DNA of 64,000 nt from an uncultured Actinomycetes bacterium (GTDB lineage Bacteria > Actinomycetota > Thermoleophilia > UBA2241). The translations under genes were made by a program, and so were the position numbers. The DNA is taken from the NCBI GenBank assembly GCA_963755025.1, contig CAVWIH010000027.1, positions 23,068 through 87,067 on the forward strand. The letters are read 5' to 3'. The notes beneath the pieces are model-generated. The model ran no database searches and was not told the origin of the DNA. It saw only the letters and a program-made list of their open reading frames with translations. Shown here piece by piece: positions 39 through 55,225 of the stretch (the first letter of the stretch is position 1; each line of letters opens with the position of its first letter).

Positions 39-68
39 GACGTGACCGGCTTGGACGACTGGGGAGCC

Positions 69-1070
69 ATGGCGACGACCACACCTGATATCCCGGCGGT
101 GACGGGCGGCGTGCTGCTCTTTCGCAGCTGCCTGATCTCGACCGAATACCCGGGCTGCGAGGCGGCCACCAAGTGGCTCTTCGAGCGCTTCGGCATCGAG
201 TACGCCGTGCTGCCCGAACAGACCTGCTGCACCGGCTTGGGCTACTACTCGGAGATCGTGCCGGTGGCCACGTCGGTGGCTCTGGCCGCGCGCAACGCCT
301 GCGTCGCGGTCGAGAGCGGCCACCCCGTGATGAGCTACCTCTGCTCGACCTGCTACGCCATCAACAAGAAGGCGCGCAACATACTGGCGGTGCCCGAGTA
401 CCGCGCCGACACCAACCGCGTGCTCGCCGAGCTCGATCGCCAGTACACCGACGACGTCGCGGCCACCGTGCGCCACAGCCACACCATGGAGATCCTGTGG
501 AGCGCCCACGAGTCGATCCCCGGTCTCATCAGGCGGCGGCTCGACGGCATCAAGGTCGCCACCCACCCGGCCTGCCACTACTGCAAGGTCTTCCCCGACG
601 AGGTCGTGGGCGACAGCGAGAACTTCATGATCCCCGAGGACCTGCTCGAGGCCACCGGGGTCGTCAAGACCGGTCTCTACAACGAAAAGACGGGGCACTG
701 CGGGGCCGGCTTTCGCCAGCGCTTCGTGAACCCTTCGATCGCCATGGCGGTCACCCGCGAGAAGCTGCGCCGCCTCGCCCAGGAGAAGGTCGACGTGTGC
801 GTCCACATGTGCCCGAACTGCGCCATCCAGTTCGATCGCCACCACGACATCATCGAGGAGTCGTCGCACGAGACCTACCCCTTCGTGCACCTCCACGTGC
901 AGCAACTCCTGGCTCTCGCCTTGGGAGCCGACCCCGACAAGGACTGCGGCGTGGCCTCGCACTCCCAGGACATCGAGCCGCTGCTGGCGCGCATCGGCGC
1001 GCGCCGCAGGGTCGGCGTGACCCCCGCCGGCGACGCGGCCGGCCCGACTCCGGCCGGAGACCACCAGTGA
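69..1070 (+). CDS. hdrB: Heterodisulfide reductase subunit B (CCG domains)
   Basis: FRSC, QTCCTG, CSTC, HPACHYC, HCGAGFRQRF, MCPNC and QLLALALGAD motifs; RBS GGGGAG before ATG 69. Confidence 0.9.
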   Translation: MATTTPDIPAVTGGVLLFRSCLISTEYPGCEAATKWLFERFGIEYAVLPEQTCCTGLGYYSEIVPVATSVALAARNACVAVESGHPVMSYLCSTCYAINKKARNILAVPEYRADTNRVLAELDRQYTDDVAATVRHSHTMEILWSAHESIPGLIRRRLDGIKVATHPACHYCKVFPDEVVGDSENFMIPEDLLEATGVVKTGLYNEKTGHCGAGFRQRFVNPSIAMAVTREKLRRLAQEKVDVCVHMCPNCAIQFDRHHDIIEESSHETYPFVHLHVQQLLALALGADPDKDCGVASHSQDIEPLLARIGARRRVGVTPAGDAAGPTPAGDHQ

Positions 1071-4000
1071 GGGCCGGCGTCTTTCTGTGCCGGTGCGGCG
1101 GCAACATCTCGGGCGTGCTCGACCTCGAGGACCTCGCCGCCGGCGTGCGCAGCCTCGACGGCGTGGTCGCCGTCGACGTCAACCAGTTCATGTGCGGCAC
1201 CGAGGGTCGCGAGATCATCGCGAAGGCGGTCGAGGACCGCGGCCTCGACCACCTCGTGATCGCCTCATGCTCGCCGCGCTTTCAGGGGCCGACCTTCGAG
1301 CGCATCGCCCGCGAGCTGCGCCTCGGCGAGAACGCCGTCGCCTTCGCCAACATCCGCGAGGGCTGCTCGTTCATCCACGCCGCCGTTCCGGCGCTGGCCC
1401 AGGAGAAGGCCCGCAAGATCGTGCGCGCCGCCGTAGCCCGCGCCCACTGTCAGTCCGACCTGCCGCGCTCACGCACGTTCCTGCACCGCTCGGCGCTCGT
1501 GGTCGGCGGCGGCATCGCCGGCATGACGGCCGCCGAAGAGCTTGCCGGCGCCGGCATCGAGGTCCACCTGGTCGAGCAGTCGCCGAGCCTGGGCGGCTAC
1601 ATGGCGCGACTCTCCAAGACCTTTCCCACCGAGGACTGCGCCATGTGCTCACTGGCGCCGCGCCTGACCACCACCGCCCTCGAGTCGCGCGTGCACCTGC
1701 ACACGCTGACCGAGGTCGGCGAGATCTCGGGCCCGCCCGGCGAGTTTCGCGTGACGCTGCGCCACAAGCCGCGCTACGTCACCGAGGCCTGCGTGGGCTG
1801 CGGCGAGTGCGAGCCCGTGTGCCCGGTGAGCTACGGCAACGACTTCGATTTCGGCGTCGCCCAGCGGCGCGCCATCAACCGGCCCTTCGCCAACGCCGTG
1901 CCGGCCACGTTCCACGTAGAGCGCAAGGGCTGGTCGCCCTGTAAGAGCGCCTGCGCCGTGCACACCTCGGCTCAGGGCTACGTCGCCCTGGTCGCCGCCG
2001 GGCGCTTCGCCGAGGCCTATCGCGTGGCCGCCGAGCCCAACCCGTTTCCCAGCGTCTGCGGACGCATCTGCACGCGTCTGTGCGAGACCGCCTGCGCGCG
2101 CGGCGCCGTCGACCAGCCGGTCGCCATCGCCGCCCTCAAGCGCTTCGTGGCCGACGAGATCGGCCCCACGCTGCCGGTAGCGCCGGCCCCGGTCATCCAC
2201 GACGAGAAGGTCGCCGTGGTGGGCGGCGGGCCGGCCGGCCTGACCGCCGCCCGCGACCTCGCCGACCTGGGCTACGCCACCACCGTCTTCGAGGCCCAGC
2301 CGGTGGCCGGCGGCATGCTGCGCACCGGCATCCCCGACTACCGCCTGCCGGGCGCCACCATCCAGCGCGAGATCGACCAGATCCTCGCCCGGGGCGTCGA
2401 GCTGCGCTTGAACCAGCGCGCCGGCGCCGACTTCACGGTCGACGGGCTGCTCGCCGACGGCTTCAGCGCCGTCTACCTGGCCACCGGGCTGCAGCGGAGC
2501 GCCGCTGTCGAGATCCCCGGCGCCGAGCTCGACGGCGTGCAGGGGGCGGTCGAGCTGCTGCGCGCCGTCAACCTCGGCCGACCGGCGGCGGTGGGCGCCA
2601 GGGTCGTCGTGATCGGCGGCGGCGACGTCGCCCTCGACGCCGCCCGCAGCGCCATCCGACTGCAGGTGACCGCCGGGCGCGAGCCCGACGTCACGCTGGT
2701 TTACCGGCGCTCCAGGGTCGAGATGCCGGCCAACGCAAGCGAGGTCGACGAGGCCAAAGACGAGGGCCTCAAGGTCGAGTTCCTCGTGCAGCCGGTCGCG
2801 ATCTGCGGCAAGGACGGCGCGGTCGCCGGTCTCACGGCCGAGCGCTGCGCGCTCGCCGAGCCCGACGCTTCGGGCCGCCGCCGGCCGCTGCCCATCGCCG
2901 GCTCGCGGTTCGAGCTGGCGTGCGACACGGTGATCTTCGCCGTCGGCCAGGCCGTCGTGACCGACTTCCTCGACGGCTGCGCCGGCGTGCGCCTCGAGGA
3001 CGGCCAGGTGAAGACCGACCGCGACACCGGCATGACCGACCGCCCCGGCGTCTTCGCCGGCGGCGACGTGGCGGCCACCGGCCTGTTCACCGCCATCGAA
3101 GCGGTCGCCGCCGGCCGCCGCGCCGCCGCCGCCATCCACAACCACCTGCGCGGCGAGACGCTGCTGCCGGTCTGGCAGCAGGAGCAGGGCGCCGCTCGCC
3201 CGACGACCGAGGAGCTCGCCGCCGTCGCCGTGGGCCAGCGCGTGCCGATGGCGCTGGTCGACGGACTGCGCCGCCGCGCCGACTGGCACGAGATCTCGCC
3301 CGGCTACGACGCCGCAGGGGCCGTCGCAGAGGCCGCGCGCTGTCTGTCGTGCGCCGTCTGCGCCGACTGCGGCTCGTGCGTGCGCGCCTGTCCGTCGGGC
3401 GCCGTCGACCTGGACGACCGCGAGTGGCGTGAAGAGATCTCGGTGGGCGCCGTGATCGTGGCCACCGGCCATCAGGAGTTCGACGCCCGGCGCAAGCCGG
3501 CGCTCGGCTTCGGCCGCTTTCGCAACGTCCTGACCCAGAGCCAGCTGGCCCGCCTGCTGGCCGCGGCCGGACCGACCGAGGGCGAGGTTCGCCGGCCTTC
3601 CGACGGCGCCGCGCCGCGCAGGATCTTCATGCTGCAGTGCGTGGGTTCGCGCGACTGCCAGAGCAGCGGCAACGAGCATTGCTCGGCCGTCTGCTGCCTG
3701 TTCGCCACCCTGCACGCCTCGCTGCTCAAACAGCACTACCCCGACGCCGAGATCACCATCGCCTACACGGACATGCGCACCCCGGGCAAGGGGCACGAGG
3801 AGTACTACCGTCTCGTGCAGAGCCGCGGCGTGCGCTACGTGCGCGGCCGCATCGCCGAGCTCGTCGAAGAACCCGACGAGCGCCTGCGCGTGCGCCTCGA
3901 GGACACAGCGACCGGCGCCAAGCACGAGGAGCTGTTCGACCTGGTCGTGCTCTCGGCGGGCCTCGAGGCCTCGGACGGCACCCGGCAGATCGCCCGGGTG

Positions 4001-4420
4001 GCCGGCCTGCAGACGGGCGCGGCCGGCTTCATCAAGGAGTACCACCCCAAGCTCGCCCCCGTCGACACGCAGCGCGCCGGCATGTTCGTGTGCGGCACCG
4101 CGCAGGGGCCCAAGAACATCCCCGACTCGATCGCCCAGGCCAAGGCGGCGGCGGCGCGCGCGGTCGCCATGCTGTCCAGCGGCTTCGTGCTCACCCCGGC
4201 CCAGGTGGCTTCGTCGGACACGACCGTCTGCATAGGCTGCGGCGTCTGCGAAAGCTCGTGTCCGCAGGGCGCGGTGGCGCTCTCGGGCGCGGTCGCGCAC
4301 GCCGTGGTCGACGCCAACGTCTGCCGCGGCTGCGGCATCTGCGCCGCCGACTGCCCCTCGGGCGCCATGCAGCTGGGCGGCTTCAGCGACGCCGAGATCC
4401 TCGCCGAGGTGACGGTGTGA
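1067..4420 (+). CDS. hdrL: Large HdrA-family protein (HdrL type) with inserted GltD/SudA-like FAD/NAD(P)H module
   Basis: GTG start overlaps the hdrB stop (GTGA). GVFLCRCGGNI, NIREGCS, GGGIAG, KTFPTEDCAMC; GltD motifs NPFPSVCGRICTRLCE, GGGPAG, GGGDVALD, YRRSR; then QCVGSRD, CSAVCC, GPKNIPDS and a C-terminal 2x[4Fe-4S] domain. Confidence 0.9.
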   Translation: MRAGVFLCRCGGNISGVLDLEDLAAGVRSLDGVVAVDVNQFMCGTEGREIIAKAVEDRGLDHLVIASCSPRFQGPTFERIARELRLGENAVAFANIREGCSFIHAAVPALAQEKARKIVRAAVARAHCQSDLPRSRTFLHRSALVVGGGIAGMTAAEELAGAGIEVHLVEQSPSLGGYMARLSKTFPTEDCAMCSLAPRLTTTALESRVHLHTLTEVGEISGPPGEFRVTLRHKPRYVTEACVGCGECEPVCPVSYGNDFDFGVAQRRAINRPFANAVPATFHVERKGWSPCKSACAVHTSAQGYVALVAAGRFAEAYRVAAEPNPFPSVCGRICTRLCETACARGAVDQPVAIAALKRFVADEIGPTLPVAPAPVIHDEKVAVVGGGPAGLTAARDLADLGYATTVFEAQPVAGGMLRTGIPDYRLPGATIQREIDQILARGVELRLNQRAGADFTVDGLLADGFSAVYLATGLQRSAAVEIPGAELDGVQGAVELLRAVNLGRPAAVGARVVVIGGGDVALDAARSAIRLQVTAGREPDVTLVYRRSRVEMPANASEVDEAKDEGLKVEFLVQPVAICGKDGAVAGLTAERCALAEPDASGRRRPLPIAGSRFELACDTVIFAVGQAVVTDFLDGCAGVRLEDGQVKTDRDTGMTDRPGVFAGGDVAATGLFTAIEAVAAGRRAAAAIHNHLRGETLLPVWQQEQGAARPTTEELAAVAVGQRVPMALVDGLRRRADWHEISPGYDAAGAVAEAARCLSCAVCADCGSCVRACPSGAVDLDDREWREEISVGAVIVATGHQEFDARRKPALGFGRFRNVLTQSQLARLLAAAGPTEGEVRRPSDGAAPRRIFMLQCVGSRDCQSSGNEHCSAVCCLFATLHASLLKQHYPDAEITIAYTDMRTPGKGHEEYYRLVQSRGVRYVRGRIAELVEEPDERLRVRLEDTATGAKHEELFDLVVLSAGLEASDGTRQIARVAGLQTGAAGFIKEYHPKLAPVDTQRAGMFVCGTAQGPKNIPDSIAQAKAAAARAVAMLSSGFVLTPAQVASSDTTVCIGCGVCESSCPQGAVALSGAVAHAVVDANVCRGCGICAADCPSGAMQLGGFSDAEILAEVTV

Positions 4421-5004
4421 GTGTGGTGGCCGGGGTCGCCCGGGCGCTGCCGGGAGTGCACGCCGCGCCGGAGGCAAGCGAAGTGCCGAGCGCGGCCGCC
4501 GCGGAGGATGCGGCCCCGCGGGGTGCAGCCGTGCCGGGTGCCGCCGCGCCGGGTGCCGCCGCGCCGGGTGCCGCCGCCCTGGGTGCCGCCGCGCCGGGTG
4601 CGGAGCCGCGCCGCACCGTCGTCGCCTTCTGCTGTCGCGAGTGCGCTTACGCCGCGGCCGACGCCAGCGCCAACGCGCGCACGTCGCTGCCGCCGACCGT
4701 GCGCCTGGTGCTGCTGCCTTGCACGGGCCGGGTCTCGCCGCTGCACCTGCTCGAGGCGCTGGCCGGCGACGCCGACGGCGTCATGGTGGCGGGCTGCCTC
4801 GAGGGCCAGTGCCACTATCGCGAGGGCAACTTCAACGCCCTCGACCGCGTGCTGTTCGTGCAGCGCGTGCTGGCCTCGGTGGGCGTCGAACCCGAGCGCG
4901 CGCGCATGTTCACCATGAGCGCCGGCGAGCCGCCCAGGTTCGCGGCCGCCGTGCGCGAGATGGACCGCGCGATCGCCGCCCTGCCGCCCCTGCCGAGGTC
5001 GTGA
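4417..5004 (+). CDS. mvhD: MvhD/FlpD-type [2Fe-2S] subunit with Ala/Pro-rich N-terminal extension
   Basis: FCCRECAYAAAD, PCTGRV, GCLEGQCHYREGN, ERARMFTMSAGE; GTGA overlap with hdrL. Confidence 0.88.
   Translation: MSVVAGVARALPGVHAAPEASEVPSAAAAEDAAPRGAAVPGAAAPGAAAPGAAALGAAAPGAEPRRTVVAFCCRECAYAAADASANARTSLPPTVRLVLLPCTGRVSPLHLLEALAGDADGVMVAGCLEGQCHYREGNFNALDRVLFVQRVLASVGVEPERARMFTMSAGEPPRFAAAVREMDRAIAALPPLPRS
4521..4601 (+). repeat. 15-bp tandem repeat, about 5 copies (GAAAP)
   Basis: GGGTGCCGCCGCGCC-like units at 4521, 4536, 4551, 4566, 4581. Confidence 0.9.
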
Positions 5005-5006
5005 CG

Positions 5007-5423
5007 ATGCCGCTGAGCCACCGCGGCCGCGAGGTACTGGAGCGTCTGCCGCAGGCCGCCTTTGCCGGCGACAGCGCTCTGGGCTGCGAGATCGTGCGCC
5101 ACGACGAGCTCTGCGTGGGCTGCGGCAGGTGCGCCGCCGCCTGCCCGAGCGGGGCCAACACCCAGAGCGACCGTTTCGACGTGAACCAGCTTCTCGACGC
5201 CCCCCAGGGCAGCCGGCGCGGCGCCCTGGGCGCCGCCTTGCGGCGCCTGCAGCGCCGCGCCCCCGACGGCCCCGTGGCCGTGCCCGCGCGCGTCACGACC
5301 TATCGCACGATCGACTACGACGCCGCCGTCTGCCTGGGCTGCGGCGCCTGCGCCCGCGCCTGCCCGGCGCAGGCCATCGAGGCGCTGGCCCCGCGGGTCG
5401 CGCCGGTCGAGGTCGCGACGTGA
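5007..5423 (+). CDS. 2x[4Fe-4S] ferredoxin-like protein with long inter-cluster insert
   Basis: CVGCGRCAAACP and CLGCGACARACP; start is GTG 5001 or ATG 5007. Confidence 0.8.
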   Translation: MPLSHRGREVLERLPQAAFAGDSALGCEIVRHDELCVGCGRCAAACPSGANTQSDRFDVNQLLDAPQGSRRGALGAALRRLQRRAPDGPVAVPARVTTYRTIDYDAAVCLGCGACARACPAQAIEALAPRVAPVEVAT

Positions 5424-8002
5424 GCGGCGTCGAGGCCGCCACCGGCGCCACTGTGAGCGGCGCCGCCGCCGCGAGCGACGCGAACCTCGCCACGACGATC
5501 GCGCACGCCGCGAGCGGCGCCCGGCCGCTCGTGCTGCTCTGCGAGTGCGCCGGCACCATGGCCAACATCGACTTCGCGGCGCTCGAGACGCGCCTCGCCG
5601 CCCACGCCGACGTGCGGCGCGGCGCCCACTGGTGTGCGCGCGACGGCCAGGCGCGCCTGCTCGAGCTCCTCGAGGGCGACCCGCGGCGGCCGGTCTTCGC
5701 CGGCTGCTCGCGCGACTTCTCCGACCGCCGCTTCCAGCGCCTCGCGGCGCGCGGCCTGCGCCTCGAGACGGCCGACATCCGCGAGGGCTGCTCGTGGGTG
5801 CACGACGGCGACACGGCGGTCGTCACCGACAAGGCGGCCCGCATAGTCCTGGCGGCGATGGCCTACCCGAGCGCTTCGGCCGATACGCTGGCCCGTACGC
5901 ACAGGATCGACTCGGTCCTGGTGATCGGCGGCGGCGTGGCGGGCACACAGGCCGCCGTCGAGCTCGCCCAGATGGGTCACCGCGTCGACATGGTCGAGAG
6001 GCGCCCGTTCCTGGGCGGCCGCGCGGCCCGCATAGGCACAGTGTTCCCGACCAACGACTGCGGCCAGTGCCTGCCGACCACCGACGCCCAGGCGGGCACG
6101 CGCAAGTGCTTTCACCGCAACGTCGCCATCGACGACCCCAGCCTGCACATCTGGCGGCGCACCACCGTCGAGGCGGTCACCGGGCGCCCCGGCGAGTTCG
6201 AGGTCGCCCTCAAGCGCCTGCCGAACATCGTCACCGCCGAGTGCCTCAACTGCAGCACCTGCGAGACCGTCTGCCCGGAGCCGTCGAGCGACGGCGCGCA
6301 CAAGGCGATCTTCGCCGAGTTCTACGACGGCCGCGTGGTGCGCACCGTCGACCTCGACACGTGCACCTTCTGCGGCGCCTGCGCCAAGGACTGCCCCGTG
6401 CAGGCCATCGACTTCAGCCAGTCTCCGGAGCGCACCACCGTCAAGGCCGGGGCGGTGCTCACCGCCGTGGGCTGCGACCCTTCGCCGGCGGCGCTCATCG
6501 ACCACCTCGGCTACGGCCGCGACAACGTGGTCACGCAGACCGAGTTCGCCGAGATGATGGACGACTGGACCGCCATGGCGTCGGTGGGCCGCACGCCGGC
6601 TCGCGACGTCGTGATGGTGCAGTGCGCCGGCTCGCGCGACCGCCGCCGCCTGCCCTACTGCTCGCGCCTCTGCTGCATGATCGCCCTCAAGCACGCGACG
6701 CGGCTCAAGCGCCTCTTTCCCGAGATGAAGGTGACGATCTGCTACCTCGAGCTGCGCACGGCCGGCATCGGCTACGAGAACTGGTACCTCGAGGCGCGGC
6801 GCGCCGGCGTCGAGTTCCTGCGCGGCACGCCGCCCAGCGTGCAGTTCGACGAGCACGGCCGACCGGTGATCGAGGTCGAAGACATGACGGTGACCGAGAA
6901 GAAGACGTTGCGCCCCGACCTGGTCGTGCTCTCGCACGGCATGGTACCGGCGAAGGAGGTCGCGAGCCTGGCCGAGGTGCTGGGCATCGAGAGGAGCGAG
7001 GACGGCTTCGTCGAGATCCTCGACCGCAAGAACCGCGCCACCGAGACGACCCGCGAGGGCATCTTCGTGTGCGGCTCGGCGGCCGGTCCCAAGGCGCTCG
7101 TCGAGTGCAACACCGAGGCCTCGGCGGTGGCGGCCGAGATCCACAACTTCCTGGGCTCGGCCGGCCGCCGCATGTCGCCCGCCTCGACCGTGCGCGCGGC
7201 GGCCTGCGTGGGCTGCGACGTGTGCGAGTCGATGTGCCCCTTCGGCGCCATCAGCCGCGTCGAGCGCCCGGCCGGGGCGCCGCGCCCGGCCGAGGTCGAC
7301 GGCGACGGCAGACTGGCCGTCATCGACTCGGAGACCTGCCGTGCCTGCGGCATCTGCGCCGCCAACTGCCCGGAGATGGCGATCGAGCATCACCTCTCCG
7401 ACGACGACCTCACCGGCCGCCTGCGCCTGCTGGCGGGCGACGTCGAACGACCGGTGATCGGCTTCTACTGCAAGGAGTGCGCCGGCGCGGCGATCGCCCT
7501 GAGCGGGCTGCGCCACGACGCCTACCCCGCCAACGTCTGCCTGATCGAGCTGCCCTGCCTGGGCCGGGTGAGCGCCCTGCATATCGTCGAGGCGGCCCGC
7601 CTGGGCGCGGCCGGCGTCTTTTTGGCCGGCTGCGCCGAGGGCCGCTGCCAGTTTCGCGCAGGCGACACGAGCGCCGCCGCCCAGGCGGCGCTCGCCGACG
7701 AGTTGCTCACCGCCGCGGGGCTGGCCATGCCGCTCGAGCTCTGGCACCTGTGCGCCGTCGATCGCGGCACCGTCGGGCGCCGTATCCGCCTGTTCTGCGC
7801 ACGCGCCCAGGGCGACGAGGCCGCCGCCGCGATGCTCGTCTCCGAGACCCACCTCGTGGACCGGGCCACCGGCGCCGGCGACACCGCGGGCGACGCGCCG
7901 CGCGCACACGGCGCCGGTGACGAGGACTCTCCGCTGGGCGGGCGCCGCTCGCGCGGCGTCAGGGCGTCGCTTGCCGAAGGGGGTTGCCGTGACTGTCGCT
8001 GA
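5420..8002 (+). CDS. hdrA: HdrA-MvhD fusion (QmoB/HdrA-like architecture)
   Basis: LCECAGTM, DIREGCSWVH, GGGVAG, FPTNDCGQC, two ferredoxin domains, QCAGSRD, CSRLCCMIALKH; C-terminal MvhD motifs FYCKEC, PCLGRV, GCAEGRC. Confidence 0.88.
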   Translation: MSGVEAATGATVSGAAAASDANLATTIAHAASGARPLVLLCECAGTMANIDFAALETRLAAHADVRRGAHWCARDGQARLLELLEGDPRRPVFAGCSRDFSDRRFQRLAARGLRLETADIREGCSWVHDGDTAVVTDKAARIVLAAMAYPSASADTLARTHRIDSVLVIGGGVAGTQAAVELAQMGHRVDMVERRPFLGGRAARIGTVFPTNDCGQCLPTTDAQAGTRKCFHRNVAIDDPSLHIWRRTTVEAVTGRPGEFEVALKRLPNIVTAECLNCSTCETVCPEPSSDGAHKAIFAEFYDGRVVRTVDLDTCTFCGACAKDCPVQAIDFSQSPERTTVKAGAVLTAVGCDPSPAALIDHLGYGRDNVVTQTEFAEMMDDWTAMASVGRTPARDVVMVQCAGSRDRRRLPYCSRLCCMIALKHATRLKRLFPEMKVTICYLELRTAGIGYENWYLEARRAGVEFLRGTPPSVQFDEHGRPVIEVEDMTVTEKKTLRPDLVVLSHGMVPAKEVASLAEVLGIERSEDGFVEILDRKNRATETTREGIFVCGSAAGPKALVECNTEASAVAAEIHNFLGSAGRRMSPASTVRAAACVGCDVCESMCPFGAISRVERPAGAPRPAEVDGDGRLAVIDSETCRACGICAANCPEMAIEHHLSDDDLTGRLRLLAGDVERPVIGFYCKECAGAAIALSGLRHDAYPANVCLIELPCLGRVSALHIVEAARLGAAGVFLAGCAEGRCQFRAGDTSAAAQAALADELLTAAGLAMPLELWHLCAVDRGTVGRRIRLFCARAQGDEAAAAMLVSETHLVDRATGAGDTAGDAPRAHGAGDEDSPLGGRRSRGVRASLAEGGCRDCR

Positions 8003-9263
8003 ACCGGTGCGGGGCGCGGTCGCCGCCATCGCCGCCGACTACCGCATCTGCTACCAGTGCGGCCAGTGCACCGCCGCCTGCCCGAGCGGCGCCGACCTGC
8101 GGTCGGGGCCACGGCGCGTCATGCGCCTGCTGCTCGCCGAGCAGGCCGAGCAGCTCCTCGCCTGCGAGGACATCTGGCGCTGCACCGGCTGCGGCGCCTG
8201 CAGCGCCGCCTGCCCCATGGACCTTGACGTGGCCGAGGCGCTGGCCCGGGTGCGCGCGCTGGAGCGCGCGCACGGCGGCCAGCGCTGCCCCGAGCGCGGC
8301 GCCGCCTTGGTGGCCGCGCGGCGGCTCGCCGAGCACGACACGATCGACTCGCTGGCGTTCGGCACGGCCATGGCCGGCCGCGGCTACGTGCCGAGCGACC
8401 TCGTCGGCGCCGCGGGCGCCGCGGCGCGCCTGCTCCAGGGCCGGCTGCGGCGGACCGCGCATCCTCAGGCAGCCGGGCCCGCGACGGCCACGGCGGCGGC
8501 CGCGTCGCACGCGGCGGCCGCTTCCGAGTCGCTCGCCACAGGTTCGGCGGCGGGGTTCGCGGCGGCGGCTGCGGGGTTCGCGGCGGCGGCTGCGCCGCCG
8601 CTCCCCTTCTACCCGGGTTGCGCCCTCACCCAGGACGCGGCGGCCCACGCCCTCACGCGCGCCGCGGCCGCCGGCCTTGGTCTGGAGCTCAGCGAGACAA
8701 GCGGCGCGCCCTGCTGCGGGCACCCCAGCCGCGGCGCGGCCGCGCCGGGCGCGATGGGCGACGAGACGCTCGTCACCGCCTGTCCGGCCTGCGACCGGAG
8801 CCTGCGCGAGGCCGGCATCCCGACGACGCCCCTCTGGGAGGCGCTCGTCGACCGCACGTTGCGCGGCGGTCGCGACCTGCGAGCGGCCGGCGCGGCCTTC
8901 GTGCCCTACGTCGGTTGCCTCGCCGAGCGCGACCGCGCCCTCGACACGCTGGCCGGCGCGGCCGCCCTTGCCCAAGTCGACTGCCTGACCTCGTACCCGG
9001 CGCTGCACAGCGGCTGCTGCGGCGCCCTGGGCGGCATGTACCGCGGCGAGACGCAGGCGGTGCGGCGGTTGCTCGACTACGCCGCCGAACGCGACGCCGC
9101 CGTGGTCACCACCTGCCTGCTATGCCGCGACAACCTGCGTTCGTCCGCCCGCCGGCGCCGGCTGCCGGTCCAGGTCCAGTTCTGGCCCGAGTTCTTCAGC
9201 GCCGCCGGCCCCGCCGCCGACGCCGGACCCACCAACTTCACCGATGGAGGCGCCCATGACTGA
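7989..9263 (+). CDS. Compact HdrC-HdrB (HdrD-like) fusion: 4Fe-4S dicluster plus two CCG domains
   Basis: CYQCGQCTAACP, IWRCTGCGACSAACP, then FYPGC/CCG/CPAC and YVGC/CCG/CLLC. Confidence 0.8.
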   Translation: MTVAEPVRGAVAAIAADYRICYQCGQCTAACPSGADLRSGPRRVMRLLLAEQAEQLLACEDIWRCTGCGACSAACPMDLDVAEALARVRALERAHGGQRCPERGAALVAARRLAEHDTIDSLAFGTAMAGRGYVPSDLVGAAGAAARLLQGRLRRTAHPQAAGPATATAAAASHAAAASESLATGSAAGFAAAAAGFAAAAAPPLPFYPGCALTQDAAAHALTRAAAAGLGLELSETSGAPCCGHPSRGAAAPGAMGDETLVTACPACDRSLREAGIPTTPLWEALVDRTLRGGRDLRAAGAAFVPYVGCLAERDRALDTLAGAAALAQVDCLTSYPALHSGCCGALGGMYRGETQAVRRLLDYAAERDAAVVTTCLLCRDNLRSSARRRRLPVQVQFWPEFFSAAGPAADAGPTNFTDGGAHD

Positions 9264-9978
9264 GCGCGACGAGCGCCCGACCGCCGTGCCCGACGCCGGG
9301 GCCGGCGTGCCCAGCGCCGAGGCCGCCGTGCCCGTACGGGTGAACCCTTACGCCGTGATCGCCCCCGGCGAGTTCCACCGGCGGCCCGAGGCCCGCCTCG
9401 ACCTGGTCGAGCGCATCGTGAACGACCCCCGCATGCACGACCACAAAGAGGGCTTTCTCTCCTGCCTGCAGTGCGGCGTGTGCACCTCGGGCTGCCCGGC
9501 GGCGCGCTTTGCCGACTATTCGCCGCGCCAGGTGGCGCGGCGCGCCTACGAGGGCGACCCCTCGCTGCTCGAAGACGACTCGGTGTGGTTCTGCTTCTAC
9601 TGCTACACCTGCCAGAGCCGCTGTCCGCGCAAGAACAGCGTGGCGGTGATCAACCAGGTGATCCGCTCCATGCAGGTCGAGAGCGGCTACGGCATCAAGC
9701 ACGTCGAGATGTTCGCGGCCTGGGGCGAGCAGTTCTACGACAAGGGCATGGGCGGCACGCCGCACGTCTTCTTCAGCGACATCGCCGAGGCTTGGGGGCC
9801 GAAGTGGCAGGCCTTCATCGCCGGCCGCGACGCGCTGCGCGAGGAGCTCGGCGTGGGCGACATGTACCCGTCGGCGGCGACCGTGGCCGAGGTACGCGCC
9901 GTCATGAGGGCGACCGGCTTCAAGGCGCGCCTCGAGAGCCTGGGCGCCTGGGGCGGCCGGCGGCCCGACGAGGATTGA
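9256..9978 (+). CDS. hdrC: Heterodisulfide reductase subunit C
   Basis: CLQCGVCTSGCP, YSPRQV, WFCFYCYTCQSRCP; GGAGG RBS at 9246-9250. Confidence 0.9.
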   Translation: MTERDERPTAVPDAGAGVPSAEAAVPVRVNPYAVIAPGEFHRRPEARLDLVERIVNDPRMHDHKEGFLSCLQCGVCTSGCPAARFADYSPRQVARRAYEGDPSLLEDDSVWFCFYCYTCQSRCPRKNSVAVINQVIRSMQVESGYGIKHVEMFAAWGEQFYDKGMGGTPHVFFSDIAEAWGPKWQAFIAGRDALREELGVGDMYPSAATVAEVRAVMRATGFKARLESLGAWGGRRPDED

Positions 9979-36083: not shown

Positions 36084-37331
36084 CTACGTCTGCGGCGTGC
36101 GCTCGAGCTCGTCGGCGAGCTGCTCCACGAACAGGCCGACGTCGGTGACCACGCCGATCGTCTGAAAGCTGCCCCGGTCGGCGAGCTTGGTGACCACCGC
36201 CGGGTTGATGTCGACGCACACGGTGTGCACGGCGGCCGGCAGCAGGTTGCCGGTGGCGATCGAGTGCAGCATGGTCGAGAGCATGAGGCAGGCGCCGGCG
36301 CGCTGCGCGTAGGCGCGCATCGCGCGCTGCGCTTCGAGCACGTCGGTGATCACCTCGGGCAGCGGCCCGTCGTCGCGGATCGAACCGGCCAGCACGAAGG
36401 GCGTGCCGGTCGTCACCAGCGTGTGCATGAGGCCCGAGCGCAGCACGCCCTGGTCGACGGCGGCGGCGATGCCGCCGCAGCGGCGGATGGTGTTGATGGC
36501 CCGCAAGTGGTGCTCGTGGCCGCCGGGCGTGGGCATGCCGGTCTTCATGTCGATGCCCAGCGAGGTGCCGAAGAGGTTCGACTCGATGTCGTGCGTGGCG
36601 ACCGCGTTGCCGCCGAACAGGGCGCCCACGTAACCCGCGCGAATGAGGCGCGCGAGCTGGGCGGCCGACCCGGTGTGGACCACGGCGGGGCCGACCACCG
36701 CGATCGTCAGCTTGCCTTCGTCGCGCACGCGGCGCAGCAGGCGCGCCACCTCGCGCACGATCTGCGCCTTGGGCTTTTCGCTCGACACCGCCGAGGCCAT
36801 GAACTCGAAGGGCTGGCTTTCGCGGGGCCGCGCCAGGGGCACCACGCGAATGCCGTGGTGGCCCACGACGAAGAGCTCTCCGGCGGCCACATCGGAGAGC
36901 GGCAGGGTCTCGGCGCGGGGACCGTCGGCGCCGACCGCGGGCCGTACGCGCACGCCGCAGTCCATCTCTGGTCCCTCGACGCGCAGCCACTCGCCGTCGA
37001 GCCGCACGTAGGTCTCGAGGTTGGTCGTCGAGTAGAACTCGTCGGGGAACACGCCGTCGGCCGGCGCCGGCGCAAGCACGGCGTCTTCGGGCGCCACGGC
37101 CACGGCGCCGTGCTCCTGCACAGCCGTGAGGATCTCTTCGAGGTGCGCCCGGTCGCGGCCGTGTATGCGGATGACGGCCCGCGAGATGTCGGTCTGGGTG
37201 CGTCCCACGTCGAACGAGAGGATCTCGAACTCGCCCTCGAGGTCCATGACGTCGTCCATGATCTGGGGCACCATCAGCGAGTCGATCAGGTGGCCCTCGA
37301 TGCGTACGTCTTCGTAAGGTTTCTCAGTCAT
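36084..37331 (-). CDS. TIGR00300 / LOR-SDH family protein (ArgZ/AgrE-type ornithine cyclodeaminase domain)
   Basis: EGHLIDS, DGVFPDEFYSTTN, EMDC, FEFMASAVSSEKP, GNAVATHDIE, LAGSIRDDGPLP, TMLHSIATGN, KLADRGS. Confidence 0.88.
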   Translation of the reverse strand: MTEKPYEDVRIEGHLIDSLMVPQIMDDVMDLEGEFEILSFDVGRTQTDISRAVIRIHGRDRAHLEEILTAVQEHGAVAVAPEDAVLAPAPADGVFPDEFYSTTNLETYVRLDGEWLRVEGPEMDCGVRVRPAVGADGPRAETLPLSDVAAGELFVVGHHGIRVVPLARPRESQPFEFMASAVSSEKPKAQIVREVARLLRRVRDEGKLTIAVVGPAVVHTGSAAQLARLIRAGYVGALFGGNAVATHDIESNLFGTSLGIDMKTGMPTPGGHEHHLRAINTIRRCGGIAAAVDQGVLRSGLMHTLVTTGTPFVLAGSIRDDGPLPEVITDVLEAQRAMRAYAQRAGACLMLSTMLHSIATGNLLPAAVHTVCVDINPAVVTKLADRGSFQTIGVVTDVGLFVEQLADELERTPQT

Positions 37332-37389
37332 CGCCTGCGATTATCTCCTAACTGGCGTCGATGTCCTTGGCGGCTCGCGCGCCGGCGCT

Positions 37390-49579: not shown

Positions 49580-50592
49580 GCGCGCCGCCGTCACCGCATG
49601 CGCGCTCGGCTGCGCCGCCGCGCGACCGCAGCCGGCTCGCGCCCTGAACTCGAGCGACCTGCGCATGAAACAGGACGTCCAGCTGCTCAAGGGCTACATC
49701 GACGCCCAGGGAGCCGCGACGGTTTCCTGTATCCGACCGGCACGCAGGTGCGCAAGGCGGCGGCCTGATCGCCCCCATCTGGCCCCTCAGCCCGTTCAGC
49801 GGCCTTCCCCTGGCGCCCGGCGCCGCAGCCGGCCACTACACCTACACCGTGGCAGCCGATCGCCAGAGCTACGCGCTCACCGGACGCCTCTCGAAGGGGC
49901 GTACGTACACGGTGCGCGGTGCGAGTCCAGCCTGGCTGGCCGCCGAGCGCGCCAAAGACGCCGCCGCCCTGACCAAGGTCAGCGACAAGGTCGTGAAGGT
50001 GGGCACGGAGTACATCGCCTCGATCATCGACCGCTTCGCCGTCGACAACAACGACGCCTATCCGACCGCCGGCATGGTCGCCCCATCCACGATGATCGAG
50101 TCCGGTCAGCCGCTCTACGATTACTGGCCAGTGAACCCGTGGTACGGCACGGTGATGTGCGAGGGCCCAGGGCTGGGTTCGTACATCTACACCCTGCCGA
50201 GCGCGTCGAGCTGTGCTCTCACCGGACACCTCTCAAGCACCGACTTCACCGTCGGCGAAAGCGCCACGACCGACCCCGTCGTCAACGGCCTCCTCAACGA
50301 ACAGGACCGGGCGGCCGAAGCCGGCTGCCAGGCGCTCAAGGACTACGTCGACGAGTGGACGCTCGCTCACGACGGCGCGCTCACGACGGTCGCCCAGCTC
50401 GCGCCTACCGGCGTCGTCGGCCTGGCGCACGCCTGGTGGCCGACGGACCCGTTCTCCGCCGCGGGGAACAGCATGGAGCCGGGAGCGCAAGAAGGGAACT
50501 ACGCCTACACGCCCGGCGACGACGGCACGTTCACGGTGACGGTCAACCTCGTGGCGACCTCAAAGTACCCCTCGAGCTACACCGCTGAGTAG
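49580..50592 (+). CDS. Secreted protein with three tandem pilin/GspG-head-like repeats; 5' part frameshifted
   Basis: Three repeats of helix-(YP)...WPxxP(F/W)...GxYxYT...LTGxLS (third copy more diverged); intact frame 49849-50592; indels near 49720 and 49757. Confidence 0.55.
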
Positions 50593-50686
50593 CCTGTCTG
50601 AGGCGCGGCGGCAGGCTCACGGGGCCGCAGCGGCAGGCTCACGGCCGCGGCGCATGCTCGGAGTCGCGCCATGATGCGCGCGGAAC

Positions 50687-50722
50687 TGGTGGGCCTGACT
50701 GGACAACTCTCGAACCACCTCC
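50687..50722 (-). mobile_element. Degenerate tRNA(Ile-like) 3' fragment, putative att scar
   Basis: Minus strand GGAGGT-GGTTCGA-gagtt-GTCCAGTCAGGCCCACCA; coincides with a visible drop in GC. Confidence 0.55.
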
Positions 50723-51140
50723 GTGAAGAGGTAAAACGCTTGATGGACTCGACATCAGAGTAAGCCAAGCCATCGCTTTGCGCTCGACTTGGGACGAGCA
50801 ACATCGAGCAACCTGCGGGAGAGCTCGGCTGGACTCTCGGTGGACGCGCATAGGTTTAGGAAACCTGCCGAAGGCGTGACGGGCGGTAGCTCACCGTGCG
50901 CGATTGTGCTGCACGATCTGGGTGTCTCAACAGACTGTGTGCTTACCCGTATTCCCCTGTCATCGGCCGTGAGTGAGCGTCTCGTCGGCAATCCGTCGGC
51001 ATTGGAGGATGCGGACGTGCGCCACTCGACCTGGCGCTGTAATGGCCGACTCCATCTCATTCACTTCAGGAAGCCTGCCGAAGGCAAAGGTTCTTCCACC
51101 GAGGTGGAGCCAGAGCGGTTGTTCGCAGGCCGATTCCCCG

Positions 51141-52406
51141 CTACCGGCGTTCCTTCGCAAGAGAGTCTAAGATCTCGGCGAGCTGACGTGTGAGCACGCG
51201 ACCGTCGAAACGGTGCACGACGGCCAGGTTAGGTGGCTTGAGGCGTCCACCGCGAACGTCCGCAACAAAGGCCGCCAGCGCCGGTCCAAGCGGCTCGTCG
51301 GGGGCAACGCAGCGTCCCGCGTCCGCCTCGTCTATCAGCTCGCGCGCAACCGAATCTCGCGGCGTCTGGGCAAACACAGGCCGCTCGCTTGCCAGGTATT
51401 CGAAGACCTTGCCGGTCATGGTCCCCCGCTGCAGACCGGTGATCAGCAGGAGTGCATCGGCAGCGCGCTGCACACCAAGGGCCCGAGCCCGCGGAGCGAA
51501 GGGCTCGATCAAGACCCGATCGGCGATGCCAAGTGCTGCGCAACGTGCGGTGATCTCGGATCCGCCCACGCCCAGAAAGAGGATGTGCACATCGTCGGGC
51601 AGCGCCGCAAAGGCGTCGAGAAACCTGTTGACCTGCTCGCTGCGACCGTAGACTCGGCCGGTATAGACGATCCAAAACCCACGGCCGAGATCGACCTCGT
51701 CGATCTCCTCCTCCGGGTCGTAGCCGTTGGGGATGACGGTCGTCATGGCGGCCTGGCCTGGGTGGAGGCGGCGCATCTCGTCGGCCATAGGCTCGTTTAT
51801 GACGGTCACGGCGCTTGCCTGCGACAGCGCCCGGCTCTCGAGCCATTCGTTCAGGGCCTTGTGCCATCGTGTCGGATAGTGGCGAAACTCGTAGGTGCGC
51901 CACGGGTCGCGGTAGTCCGCCACCCAGGGAATCCCGCTCTCTTTGGCAAGCTCGGCGGCCACGAGGTGTGCTGAGCCGCGAGGGTAGCTCGAGAAGATAG
52001 CGTCATAGCGTTGCTCGCGCAGCAGGCGCCGCCCCAAGAGCACCGCCGGTACGATCCAACTGACGTAGACGTCGGGTATCTGGAGCCACTCTTCGATGGC
52101 TCCACGCCGTGAGGTGCGGTGACGTTGTGAGGGAGCTGCCGCCGTCGTCGCTGTGCCGGCTACTGGCTGCCCGCGCTTCGGCCCGGCGACGCGCCGGGCC
52201 AGAGCGTAGAGGCGTTCCAAGTCGAGCGCGCCGGCGCGCTCGATCCTGACATCGGGGGGATCGGAGACCGGGCCTTGTGCACGCACGGTAAGCACCGTCG
52301 GCTGCCAGCCGCAGGCGGGCAGGTAACGCAGAAAGCGCAGATGACGCGCCGTGCCACCGCTTTCCGAGGGCGGGAACGGATTCGCGATGTAGAGGAGACG
52401 TTTCAT
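51141..52406 (-). CDS. Glycosyltransferase family 4
   Basis: FPPSESGGTAR, WVADYRDPW, IPNGYD, YTGRVY, GKVFEYLASERP. Confidence 0.9.
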   Translation of the reverse strand: MKRLLYIANPFPPSESGGTARHLRFLRYLPACGWQPTVLTVRAQGPVSDPPDVRIERAGALDLERLYALARRVAGPKRGQPVAGTATTAAAPSQRHRTSRRGAIEEWLQIPDVYVSWIVPAVLLGRRLLREQRYDAIFSSYPRGSAHLVAAELAKESGIPWVADYRDPWRTYEFRHYPTRWHKALNEWLESRALSQASAVTVINEPMADEMRRLHPGQAAMTTVIPNGYDPEEEIDEVDLGRGFWIVYTGRVYGRSEQVNRFLDAFAALPDDVHILFLGVGGSEITARCAALGIADRVLIEPFAPRARALGVQRAADALLLITGLQRGTMTGKVFEYLASERPVFAQTPRDSVARELIDEADAGRCVAPDEPLGPALAAFVADVRGGRLKPPNLAVVHRFDGRVLTRQLAEILDSLAKERR

Positions 52407-52559
52407 ATGTAGCTCAGGAGAAGCTCAGGGCTGAGTCGATTGAGGCGAAGTCACGGTCCTCGCTCTTCGCAGTACAGGCCGAACTCAAGCAGCTATCCTA
52501 ACGCACATGAACCACCCGAGTCGTCGATGTGAGCCACCGGAGGGGACGGAGGCCGCGCT

Positions 52560-52700
52560 GCATGATCTCGCCCGCGCCGACGGAGATGACGAAATGAGTC
52601 TCGAGGCGATCAGCTCAACGAGGTTGAGTGAGTCGAGCAGACCGTCGCGAAATCGGGCCGTATCCTGCTCGATGGGCTTCCCCGGGCCGTGTGATGAAAG
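52560..52700 (-). pseudogene. Decayed acyl carrier protein copy
   Basis: PIEQDTARFRDGLLDSLNLVELIA/(frameshift)LETHFVISVGAGEIM aligns with the intact ACP at 54584-54859. Confidence 0.6.
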
Positions 52701-53099
52701 TGCACGACCGCTGATGCGTGGCTCTCCAGTTACACAGAGGACGCTCGTCGTGTCGCTGTTCGTGCCGGTCTGAGCGCCAGAGCTGGTGCCGACTTTCGGC
52801 TCGGAAGGGTCCGCGAACCTCTGCCCGTCCACCATTGGCCCATGGAGGGCATCGGCTGAGCATATCGGTGGCTCAGCCCCCCTTCGGGGAGCCAGTGGCC
52901 CAGATGCCGCTTCACCGGTCTGCACAATCATCGCCTGGGACCCCGCCCAGGGCCGCGACGTGGCGGTGGACCAGAGGGGTCGCGCGGCTTCGGGCGCCGG
53001 CGCCGAGTCTGTGTCGAGCCTGCAGGACAGACTCGCAGCCAGCTTCACTCCCCGCAGACTGCGCGCTGCCAGATGCGAGCGCCCTCTGTCTCTGCGCGC

Positions 53100-54390
53100 C
53101 TACACCGACGGAATGCCGAGCGCGAAGTTGCGCGTGAGCCAGAGCATGCCCACAAACGAGCAGGCGATGAGCGCCCAGGCCAGCACCGGCCGCTTCCGCG
53201 TGGCGTAGGCGAGGGCCATGAACAGCGGGAAGATCACCAGGGCGAAGCGTGGGAACGAGTACAGCGCGTGCAGCGGCGTCGGAAAGCAGAGCGGCACGAG
53301 CAGGCTCACCACGGCGAACATCGTGTAGGCCGGCGCGAGACGGCGCCAGCCGGCCACCACGCAGGCGCCGGCAAAGAGCAGCGTGGCAAAGCCGAAGAGC
53401 GCCAGGATGGGGTCGTGCCCGCCCGGCCTCGGCAGGAGCAGCGGCCGCAGGCCGCCCCGGTGGGCTCGCAGCGTGTGGTAGGCGGCGATCGCGGCCCGAT
53501 AGCCGTGGACTATGTCGGCCGTGGGCAGCGCCAGCGCGCGTCCCCAGAAGGTGCGCTCGGCCACCGAGAAGGCCAGGGGATCGCCCAGGCGCCACCACAG
53601 GTAGGCCATGTAAGCGAGCAGGCCGACCGGAATGAGCGCAAGCCAGCCCAGGCGCAGGTCACGGGGCCAACGCAGCGAGACGCTGCGCCAACTCCACCCC
53701 TGCTGCCGTCCGTAGAGGAGCAGGAGCGCCGGCAGGAGCGCCAGGCCGCTGCTGCGCGTGGCCACCGCCAGCATGCCGGCGACCCCCGCCGCCGCCCAGC
53801 TGCCGCGGCGCGCAAAGATTAAGGCGGCCACGGTGAGCAGCAGGAACAGCGACTCGCTGTAGACCAGGCCAAAGCAGAGCGCGGTGGGAAAGACCGAGAT
53901 GAAGGCCACGGCCAGCGCGGCGGTGTGCGTGTCGAACTCGGCGGCCGTGAGGCGGTAGAGCAGCACCATGGCCGCCGCGTAGCAGGCAAGCGACAGCAGC
54001 ACGCCGGCCAGCGGGTAGTCGCCGCCGGTCACCACGGCCGCCCCGCGTAGCGCCACCGGATAGAGGGGAAAGAACGCCGCGCTGTGCGGGCGCCAGTAGC
54101 CGCCGCGCGCGATGGCGATGAACCAGCCGCCGTCTTTGGTGGCCGACTCCCGCGTGAGCCGCGACACAAAGCTCCAGTGCAACGGCGCGCCGCCCACGCG
54201 ACGCCGCCCCGTGACCACATAGCCCACGACCAGCACCGCCAGTCGGCTGGCGAGCGCCACCGCCAGGGCCACGCCCCAGCCGGGCAGGCCCAGGGCCCGC
54301 CCATGGCGCTGCGAGCCCGAAGAGCGGCGTCGCCCCGGCCGACCGCGACGCAGCTGGAGCCGAAGCTCGGCGATACGCGTCCACGGACAT
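53100..54390 (-). CDS. PIG-V-like GT-C mannosyltransferase; start uncertain, probable 5' indel
   Basis: DGGWFIAIARGGY, AFFPLYP, FPTA, YSESLF, TRSSG, GDPLAF, SFPRF. Confidence 0.85.
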
Positions 54391-54583
54391 GTCTCCCATT
54401 CTGTCACGCGCGACCAGACGCAACCACCAGGGCGGAGAAGGATCGACTCTCGAGAGTCCCGATTCACGCACGCTAGGGCGCTGTATACGTAGGAGTCGGG
54501 ATGGGCGACCGGGTTCTTCTACGACGGAGGCAGGCCGCCAGCAGCGTCCGAGCCGTCTGCCGAACGCGACAACTCTTCGACGG

Positions 54584-54859
54584 TCAGGCCGATGGGATGA
54601 TAGCCCGCTTGCGCGCGACGAAGGCCACGATGTGCTGAACGCTGTCGAGATTCTCAAAGACGACGTCGGCACTGCTGATCGCGATGGCGAACCGGGCCTC
54701 GAGGAACGTGATGAGGCTCAGCAAGTTCATCGAATCGAGAAGCCCGCTGCGAAACAACGGGGTATCGACTTCGATATGATCGTCCGGCACGTCGTCGAGC
54801 TCGTCGCGGATGAACTGGAGGATCGTGTCAGTTTCGCTTGTGTCGAAGAAGTCTTTCAT
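54584..54859 (-). CDS. Acyl carrier protein (DltC-like)
   Basis: DTPLFRSGLLDSMNLLSLITFLEARFAI...ENLDSV with the phosphopantetheine Ser. Confidence 0.85.
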   Translation of the reverse strand: MKDFFDTSETDTILQFIRDELDDVPDDHIEVDTPLFRSGLLDSMNLLSLITFLEARFAIAISSADVVFENLDSVQHIVAFVARKRAIIPSA

Positions 54860-55084
54860 CTTGTCAAAGGAGCCTGCGACACACAGCACACCTGTCCCAG
54901 CTGGCCCCCGGGACGGCAACCCGCCGCTGGCTGGCTTGGCACCACAGTCCCCTGTACGAGATGACCGACATGGTCCCTCCGCCGTCTGCCGGTGGCACAG
55001 TGTTGCGCCATGCTACCACGCCTGGCACGAGCATCGGGCGCATGCGCTCCCCCTGCATGTCCGCCCGCTTGCGTCTGTCGTACC

Positions 55085-55207
55085 GTTGTCGACCGGGCGG
55101 TCCTGTCGAGCCGTAACCCCGACGACCTGCCGGCGTTCTGCGCGCAGATGATCCGGCTGTTCGCCCTTGGCCGCAAGCAGAGCGAGCGCGCCAACCTGGC
55201 GGCCTAG
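55085..55207 (+). pseudogene. C-terminal remnant of a PfpI/DJ-1 family gene
   Basis: VVDRAVLSSRNPDDLPAFCAQMIRLFA matches the PfpI C-terminal VVDxxLxTSRxPDDLPAF pattern. Confidence 0.6.
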
Positions 55208-55225
55208 CTTCCTAGCGCAGCGGGG

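Follow-up and report, generated by a model that had tools for sequence, protein, structure and literature searches.

Probable archaeal kinship of HdrB and HdrC in a seven-gene Hdr operon of an uncultured soil actinobacterium

To our knowledge, the paired non-cubane [4Fe-4S] clusters of HdrB are the only catalysts of homolytic heterodisulfide cleavage. The locus considered here stands at the start of a 64,000-nucleotide stretch of DNA (the window; positions 23,068 to 87,067 of contig CAVWIH010000027.1, assembly GCA_963755025.1), which is part of an 87 kb contig. It raises two questions: from where a bacterium obtained HdrB and HdrC proteins that resemble subunits of the archaeal ferredoxin:coenzyme B–coenzyme M (CoB-CoM) reductase, and what an altered ligand motif in this HdrB means for its second cluster. 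The host is an uncultured soil actinobacterium with a guanine plus cytosine (GC) content of 72%, represented by a metagenome-assembled genome (MAG) of 3.37 Mb that is 84% complete. In the reading preferred here, to which we give a probability of roughly 0.7, the pair is a bacterial branch with archaeal HdrBC proteins of the NF041780/NF041890 type as its nearest kin, and belongs to an NAD(P)H-linked seven-gene Hdr complex. The archaeal kinship of the HdrBC pair and the covariation of its cluster ligands are what is new; bacterial Hdr homologues and HdrL-type operons are already known, and the finding is therefore moderately interesting rather than striking. The open-access literature, searched for the CCG variant and for Hdr in Thermoleophilia, Dormibacteria and Gaiellales, yielded no account of the clade or of the ligand swap.

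Nearest relatives of HdrB and HdrC

The hdrB gene (69..1070, + strand) encodes a protein of 333 amino acids with two CCG domains (PF02754 in two stretches, 59 bits). Its reading frame spans 42..1070 and a GTG at 42 is an alternative start, but the ATG at 69 is favoured because the N-termini of relatives align from residues 1–5. The hdrC gene (9244..9978, + strand) encodes 244 amino acids, comprising a di-[4Fe-4S] ferredoxin part and a C-terminal extension of the NF041890/NF041779 type. The original prediction placed this gene at 9256–9978; the end is correct, but 9256 is the second ATG of the open reading frame, which begins at 9244. All 11 motifs on which that prediction rested are present in the two translations. 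The five HdrB motifs read VLLFRSCLISTEYPG, CSTCYAINKK, THPACHYCKV, HCGAGFRQRF and HMCPNCAIQFDR, and those of HdrC read VWFCFYCYTCQSRCPRKNSVAVINQ and, at the C-terminus, REELGVGDM...RATGF. The observation of archaeal-type signatures is thus confirmed, and comparisons of the proteins support its interpretation as archaeal kinship, as described below.

HdrB aligns end to end with the equivalog model NF041780 (325.8 bits; profile positions 5–303 of 304) and scores higher on it than on other HdrB models, including TIGR03288 (163.8 bits, below its cut-off of 345), which bears out the proposed likeness to the ferredoxin:CoB-CoM type. The same holds for HdrC, for which NF041890 is the top-scoring model over the full length (200.5 bits; profile positions 7–190 of 192). 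Only positions 3–83 of 144 are covered in TIGR03290, and the HdrC chains in the PDB align to residues 70–159 only, which is the ferredoxin part. HdrC therefore has the layout of the NF041890 type, with a di-cluster ferredoxin part followed by a long C-terminal extension, and is encoded together with an NF041780-type HdrB.

In a search of 1.84 billion cluster representatives with HdrB, 110 of the best 150 matches were full-length. The representative of the window protein's own 50%-identity cluster (P0121) is 70% identical to it and scores 348.4 bits on NF041780. The nearest foreign cluster, P0123 (39% identity, 246 bits), is the one member of the 110 that passes the NF041780 cut-off (492 bits), and all of its named relatives belong to the Methanobacteriales (Methanosphaera, Methanobacterium, Methanobrevibacter, Methanobacteriaceae). 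The clusters P0126, P0127 and P0128 follow at about 195 bits, and the named relatives of P0127 are mostly Candidatus Helarchaeota or Promethearchaeota. No bacterial representative cluster is nearer than the archaeal one, and the pair does not nest in an ordinary bacterial Hdr clade. As a control, Methanosarcina acetivorans also encodes an NF041780 member above the cut-off. The canonical HdrB of Methanothermobacter marburgensis (8RVU/8RWN), which has an intact CCG motif, matches the NF041780-type protein of Methanobacterium formicicum with only 165 bits; NF041780-type proteins are therefore a distinct paralogous family in the Methanobacteriales.

Relatives of the archaeal family were examined in 80 low-GC (23–42%) metagenome loci, 56 of which have the gene order hdrC-hdrB-hdrA. 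Their HdrB and HdrC proteins are 36–44% and 30–42% identical to those of the window, respectively, and in an alignment the HdrC proteins have the signatures W.CFYCYTC.S.CP..NS....NQ and R.ELGLG...TGF in common with the window HdrC.

The second cluster site of HdrB

The N-terminal cluster site of HdrB is complete, with all five Cys residues (C21, C53, C54, C92, C95). The C-terminal site consists of C169, C172, H210, C211, C248 and C251, that is, four canonical Cys residues together with His210 and an extra Cys172. In alignments to the solved chains 5odc_B, 8rvu_b and 9sfi_C, 'hcgag' of the window protein stands opposite 'ccgag', and 'achyck' opposite 'gchflk'. These alignments agree with the original prediction that the second CCG motif is HCG (His210-Cys211, codons at 696..701, + strand) and that an additional Cys lies nearby, namely three residues past the ligand Cys169 (Cys169-His-Tyr-Cys172, codons at 573..584, + strand).

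The residues at positions 169/172/210/211/248/251 were read across fetched proteins. The pattern C,C,H,C,C,C is found in 116 of 120 close bacterial homologues. Among 201 archaeal-family relatives, the pattern is C,C,T,C,C,C in 151 and C,C,H,C,C,C in 15 (the Methanosphaera group); a group of the Helarchaeota type (19 sequences) retains CCG with Phe or Tyr at 172, and three other patterns account for five more. One ligand position is thus replaced in 305 of the 321 bacterial and archaeal-family sequences, nearly always with a compensating Cys. Among the other representatives (115 scored), all 99 that fall in the 12 commonest patterns listed have the canonical CCG without Cys172. The first Cys was lost in a single well-supported clade, and the new Cys occurs in two of its branches, the bacteria and the Methanobacteriales. 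The residue at the lost position is His in the bacteria and in Methanosphaera, and Thr in most Methanobacteriales.

Thr cannot ligate iron, yet Cys172 is kept beside either Thr or His (14 exceptions in 182), which makes Cys172 the more likely stand-in for the lost ligand. The original prediction suggested that the extra Cys might fill this role, and the covariation is in line with it: Cys172 probably takes over ligation at the second site, and His210 of the bacterial proteins may be an additional or alternative ligand. Judged from these alignments, the second, predicted non-cubane [4Fe-4S] site is rewired throughout the bacterial and archaeal group. An AlphaFold2 model of HdrB (predicted local distance difference test score, pLDDT, 91.2) has methanogen HdrB chains as its top fold matches (target-normalised TM-score, TMt, 0.90) and places residues 169–172 in a short helical turn straight after the strand 162–166; this predicted geometry fits a CxxC-like pair at 169/172.

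A set of HdrB relatives (P0408, P0411, P0426, P0432, P0454, P0461, P0462, P0464 and P0466–P0468) has TCG with Tyr at +3 and no compensating Cys. Ten of them form a clade of their own (support 100/100), and P0408, labelled Helarchaeota, is the only named member of the set.

The set of proteins with HCG or TCG spans archaeal proteins that NCBI names ferredoxin:CoB-CoM reductase and a bacterial clade that is common in MAGs from soil and peat, and thereby provides Fe-S enzymologists with a natural experiment on cluster ligation.

Trees, distribution and the direction of transfer

The tree-based check of HdrB and HdrC that the original prediction called for places the bacterial clade in a strongly supported group in which every other named member is archaeal. 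Support values are given in pairs. In a 57-row HdrB tree, the bacterial clade has a support of 100/100 and a stem of 1.02; support is 97/99 for the bacteria together with Methanobacteriales and P0408, and 99/96 once the Helarchaeota group is included. In a 61-row tree, for which ten more sequences were added, the sequences whose second CCG motif has lost its first Cys all fall in one clade (100/98; 100/95 with the Helarchaeota group), within which the bacteria (100/100) and the bacteria with P0408 (97/84) are grouped. The window HdrB lies in the 100/98 clade, but on its own long branch beside the archaeal members and not among them. In a concatenate of HdrC and HdrB (511 columns), supports are 97/95 for bacteria with archaea, 100/100 for bacteria and 98/98 for archaea. 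In one other Thermoleophilia MAG (locus L083, 10001–10936), HdrB is only 50% identical to that of the window, whereas HdrA, MvhD and ferredoxin are 66–86% identical; this HdrB is basal in the bacterial clade on a long branch, and is either fast-evolving or was replaced within a conserved operon.

The best 120 HdrB homologues are 69–94% identical. Loci were taken from the best 80 of 580 stretches in data with one genome per species, and all 80 are from bacterial MAG records. Their labels include Actinomycetes, Thermoleophilia, Gaiellaceae, Acidimicrobiales/-aceae and Actinomycetota, and also Candidatus Dormibacteria, Dormiibacterota, Changshengia, Chloroflexia, one Thermoguttaceae and two delta-proteobacterial records. 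The seven genes occur in the same order in 53 of the 80 loci, and 20 more end at contig ends and agree as far as they run. In seven loci (L024, L025, L057, L060, L065, L066, L067), HdrC comes straight after HdrB and the examined flanks contain no HdrA; at least five of these are in genomes that also carry the seven-gene form. Neighbours of the HdrB-HdrC-only loci include a PALP enzyme (L057, L066), a class-V aminotransferase (L066), and TauE with a methyltransferase (L025), which are faint hints of sulfur metabolism. Within the order to which the window belongs, 63 of 89 genomes have a strong match, the window's genome included (27 of 32 high-quality ones), but of 300 other genomes sampled across the phylum only one does. 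Identities of 70–79% between different phyla suggest lateral spread of these proteins among soil lineages.

The most economical history would be a single, old inter-domain transfer, probably from archaea to bacteria, in which the archaeal HdrBC came to be combined with an NAD(P)H input module of the HdrL type and then spread between soil phyla. The original prediction had offered inter-domain transfer or an unrecognised bacterial branch as explanations; the second describes what is found, namely a separate branch beside the archaeal members, and the first would account for it.

Several points weigh against archaeal kinship or limit its reach. Both proteins fall short of the curated cut-offs (450 bits for NF041780 and 270 bits for NF041890), and are therefore to be regarded as a separate bacterial branch and not as members of the archaeal equivalogs. 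In approximately unbiased (AU) tests on HdrB alone, a single clade of the archaeal-type rows without the bacteria passes (p = 0.298), so that nesting of the bacteria within the archaea and sisterhood to them are not distinguishable; the joining of the bacteria to other NF041780-like representatives is not rejected either (p = 0.232 and p = 0.079). The AU tests are borderline and weaker than the branch supports, and are weakened further in that the groups were named after a first tree had been seen. The bacterial stem is long (1.0–1.4 changes per column), which makes long-branch effects possible. A tree of HdrC only, with long fused-protein outgroups, is uninformative; the outgroups P0224, P0241 and P0255 probably lack an HdrC-like N-terminal part, and the concatenate was used instead. 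Outgroup representatives are mostly without taxon names and some may be bacterial, and one relative in the Helarchaeota group is labelled 'Candidatus De...', from which its domain cannot be told. For both HdrA proteins of the operon, the Methanosarcina HdrA2 model gives a higher score than hdrA_Methbact does, and this lack of Methanobacteriales affinity indicates that the operon is a mosaic and was not transferred whole. Lastly, both the first Cys and the new Cys are missing in 11 of the 201 archaeal-family relatives (C,Y,T,C,C,C), and the new Cys is therefore not strictly required.

Some of these points would be explained if the archaeal kinship were an artefact, in which a fast-evolving branch of the bacterial HdrBC that accompanies HdrL had converged with the Methanobacteriales in its Cys swap. 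The long stem and the two HdrB-only tests of grouping with other NF041780-like representatives are compatible with such a history, the remaining genes of the operon match the HdrABC/HdrL type that the consulted excerpt of PMC5947623 describes in Desulfobacterota, and His210 arose twice in any case, in Methanosphaera and in bacteria. We nevertheless consider it unlikely: in similarity scores, which are independent of any tree, all other foreign clusters trail the Methanobacteriales cluster by about 50 bits, the Methanobacteriales model is independently the best match of HdrC, the loss of Cys210 and the gain of Cys172, two rare and linked states, are common to both groups, and the branch supports of 100/98 and 97/95 argue for the group. 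The AU test on the concatenate also rejects, if only marginally, the joining of the bacteria to six fused representatives (p = 0.040).

The direction of transfer could also be the reverse, with bacteria inventing this type of HdrBC and the Methanobacteriales and the organisms of Helarchaeota-labelled MAGs acquiring it as a second Hdr. The canonical CCG-type HdrB used by M. marburgensis (8rvu/8rwn chains), the paralogous standing of the NF041780 type in Methanobacteriales (165 bits to the canonical protein), the unrooted tree and the p value of 0.298 for archaea as a single clade excluding bacteria would all suit this proposal. However, moving outwards from the bacteria, the named neighbours are archaeal at every step (P0408, Methanobacteriales, then the Helarchaeota group), the motifs can be arranged as a series from CCG with Tyr or Phe, through TCG with Tyr, to TCG or HCG with Cys, in which the bacteria are the most derived, and the gene is rare in the phylum beyond the window's order. 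Invention in bacteria appears slightly less probable still than an artefact of kinship, and transfer from archaea to bacteria is the direction that we prefer.

The seven-gene operon, its proposed function and its known counterparts

The seven genes lie on the + strand at 69–9978 and are tightly packed or overlapping, forming one hdr operon in which HdrB is the first gene and HdrC is the last. HdrB is followed by an HdrL-like HdrA of 1117 amino acids (1067..4420, + strand; Pfam Pyr_redox_2 and Fer4_20; NCBIfam HdrA2 707 bits in three stretches), which has a GltD/NfnB-like NAD(P)H module in the region of the inserted ferredoxin (PRK12771 NAD(P)-binding, 481 bits, residues 283–781). The third gene encodes an MvhD/FlpD-type [2Fe-2S] protein (4417..5004, + strand; PF02662 137.8 bits), whose start may lie further downstream because the domain covers only residues 68–189 of the frame, and the fourth a ferredoxin with two [4Fe-4S] motifs (5001..5423, + strand; Fer4 families in two stretches). 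Next is a second HdrA, to which an MvhD domain is fused at the C-terminus (5420..8002, + strand). It is HdrA2-like (NF040770 462.5 bits, profile positions 4–740 of 777; FlpD at residues 679–769), and its start codon is uncertain (GTG at 5420, 5453 or 5531). The sixth gene, an HdrD-like fusion (7989..9263, + strand; Fer4_17 and a weak CCG match; TIGR03290 at residues 19–93), consists of an HdrC-type di-cluster N-terminal part, an Ala-rich linker and two CCG motifs that appear intact by eye in the translation. With an HdrA carrying a GltD/NfnB-like module, MvhD, an FeS protein and the HdrABC parts in one operon, the locus belongs to the HdrL type. The HdrD-like fusion gives the operon two disulfide-reductase modules alongside two different HdrA subunits, and an asymmetric complex may form.

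By analogy with known Hdr complexes, HdrB and HdrC would be the split disulfide-reducing module of a soluble seven-gene complex. NAD(P)H would enter at the NfnB-like module, and the flavin of HdrA would bifurcate electrons to ferredoxin and, via HdrC, to the two clusters of HdrB, which would reduce a disulfide; the complex might also run in reverse, as a confurcating enzyme. In one locus (L027, 3735–9823), the hdr operon is immediately preceded by a PFOR-like gene and by the genes of an NAD-linked [NiFe] hydrogenase of the Hox type (NuoE-like and HoxU-like proteins, the small and large subunits, HypA), and similar hydrogenase/PFOR-type gene sets are found in about 10–12 loci of Dormibacteria and Chloroflexia. 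Such neighbours fit a role in balancing NAD(P)H and ferredoxin. In the window's own MAG (84% complete), no [NiFe] hydrogenase was found.

No gene in the window points to a substrate. A true CoM-S-S-CoB heterodisulfide reductase in this bacterium is very improbable. The top-scoring families of HdrB and HdrC are indeed subunits of ferredoxin:CoB-CoM reductase, and the genome encodes a ComA-family protein (308 bits). However, both Hdr proteins are below the equivalog cut-offs, and the ComA family is not specific to coenzyme M because its model also matches proteins in the controls Bacillus subtilis and Corynebacterium glutamicum. We also know of no soil Actinomycetota that make coenzyme B. Elsewhere in the genome, a gene resembling cofH of F420 synthesis scores 367.7 bits, just under the cut-off, and is not decisive. 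A DsrC/TusE-family match (G000:C26:30170-30467) sits well away from the operon, where a 555-amino-acid open frame ends; it is split over two frames, by a possible frameshift or assembly error, and has a single Cys near its C-terminus (...PNPKTCTV).

HCG or TCG with Cys at +3 might mark a distinct catalytic type of HdrB that arose in archaea, was captured by soil bacteria and was wired to an NAD(P)H module for a non-methanogenic thiol–disulfide couple. This proposal is tentative, as is its corollary that the second cluster has an altered geometry or potential and hence a different disulfide chemistry; if it is true, widespread Actinomycetota and Dormibacterota of peat and soil hold an electron-bifurcating enzyme derived from archaea. 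For microbial ecologists, the locus offers the hypothesis that archaeal ancestry underlies the catalytic core of a seven-gene operon that occurs widely in uncultured soil bacteria.

The operon is flanked upstream by a divergent uroporphyrinogen-decarboxylase-like gene on the contig (hemE, read from the sequence; its counterpart in locus L004 scores 441 bits on URO-D) and downstream by nadA, and the remaining window contains ordinary housekeeping genes. Within it, a gene at 36087–37340 (− strand) encodes a nickel-pincer-nucleotide-dependent ornithine cyclodeaminase (TIGR00300 523.6 bits, above cut-off). The region from about 50000 to 64000 has a GC content of 65–69%, against about 72%, and includes several open reading frames without an NCBIfam match at E ≤ 1e-40; it may be a foreign segment.

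Among known systems, the Methanobacteriales HdrBC of the NF041780/NF041890 type is the closest: the profile matches are full-length, the tree clade is the same, and the nearest foreign cluster belongs to it. In both, the second CCG motif has lost its first Cys, and they also have in common the extra Cys in CHYCK, the HdrC motifs and the C-terminal extension. They differ in that the archaeal operon is hdrC-hdrB-hdrA, whereas in the window hdrB opens and hdrC closes a seven-gene operon that includes an NAD(P)H module. The window host is a bacterium of high GC content for which there is no evidence of methanogenesis cofactors, although mcr and CoB-synthesis genes were not searched for.

HdrL-type clusters are the closest counterparts of the operon as a whole. 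The consulted excerpt of PMC5947623 describes, at the genome or proteome level and in anaerobes, the HdrABC/HdrL cluster of Syntrophobacter fumaroxidans (Sfum_0819-0824) and HdrL of Desulfobacterium autotrophicum, and that of PMC9012536 notes HdrA/NfnB fusions in ANME-1. Compared by the parts lists in these excerpts (PMC5947623, PMC9012536), such clusters and the window operon have HdrABC, an FeS protein, MvhD and a large HdrA with an NAD(P)H-binding module in common, but the window operon has an additional HdrD-like fusion and a second HdrA. For the HdrA–MvhD fusion, M. acetivorans HdrA2B2C2 is given as the only characterised enzyme in the excerpt of PMC5296606. No Flx-like gene of the Hdr-Flx system (FlxABCD-HdrABC) of sulfate reducers is present among the seven genes or the flanking hemE and nadA, though no search aimed at Flx was run. 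Features of sHdr, the Hdr-like system of sulfur oxidation (a lipoate-binding protein, a DsrE/TusA sulfur transferase, paired sHdrB1/B2) are absent from the operon and window, as judged by gene content and not by comparison of sHdrB sequences.

The solved MvhAGD-HdrABC, Fdh-Hdr-Fmd and Elp-Hdr complexes (5ODC, 7BKB, 8RVU) have the same fold as the window HdrB (TM 0.90), with five Cys residues at the first site and four of the five ligands conserved at the second. In contrast to the window protein, all of their chains, which are about 30–32% identical to it, have the complete five-Cys pattern at either site, with an intact CCG as the second motif and no Cys at +3, and none of the solved HdrB structures represents the H/T-CG variant. 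The bridging ligands of Hdr, which are Cys81 and Cys234 according to the excerpted text of PMC13083937, are conserved in the window HdrB as Cys95 and Cys251. The same excerpt describes mycobacterial EtfD (PDB 9OJN; PMC13083937), in which a C-T-G motif leads to a linear [3Fe-4S] cluster, and a non-cubane cluster that is not catalytic is completed by a His. EtfD, which is a weak structural match to the HdrB model (TMq 0.57), differs from the window protein in that the second Cys of the pair is replaced and not the first, and in that it is membrane-bound and links ETF to menaquinone; it is nonetheless a precedent in which a change of one Cys in a CCG motif alters cluster type or ligation.

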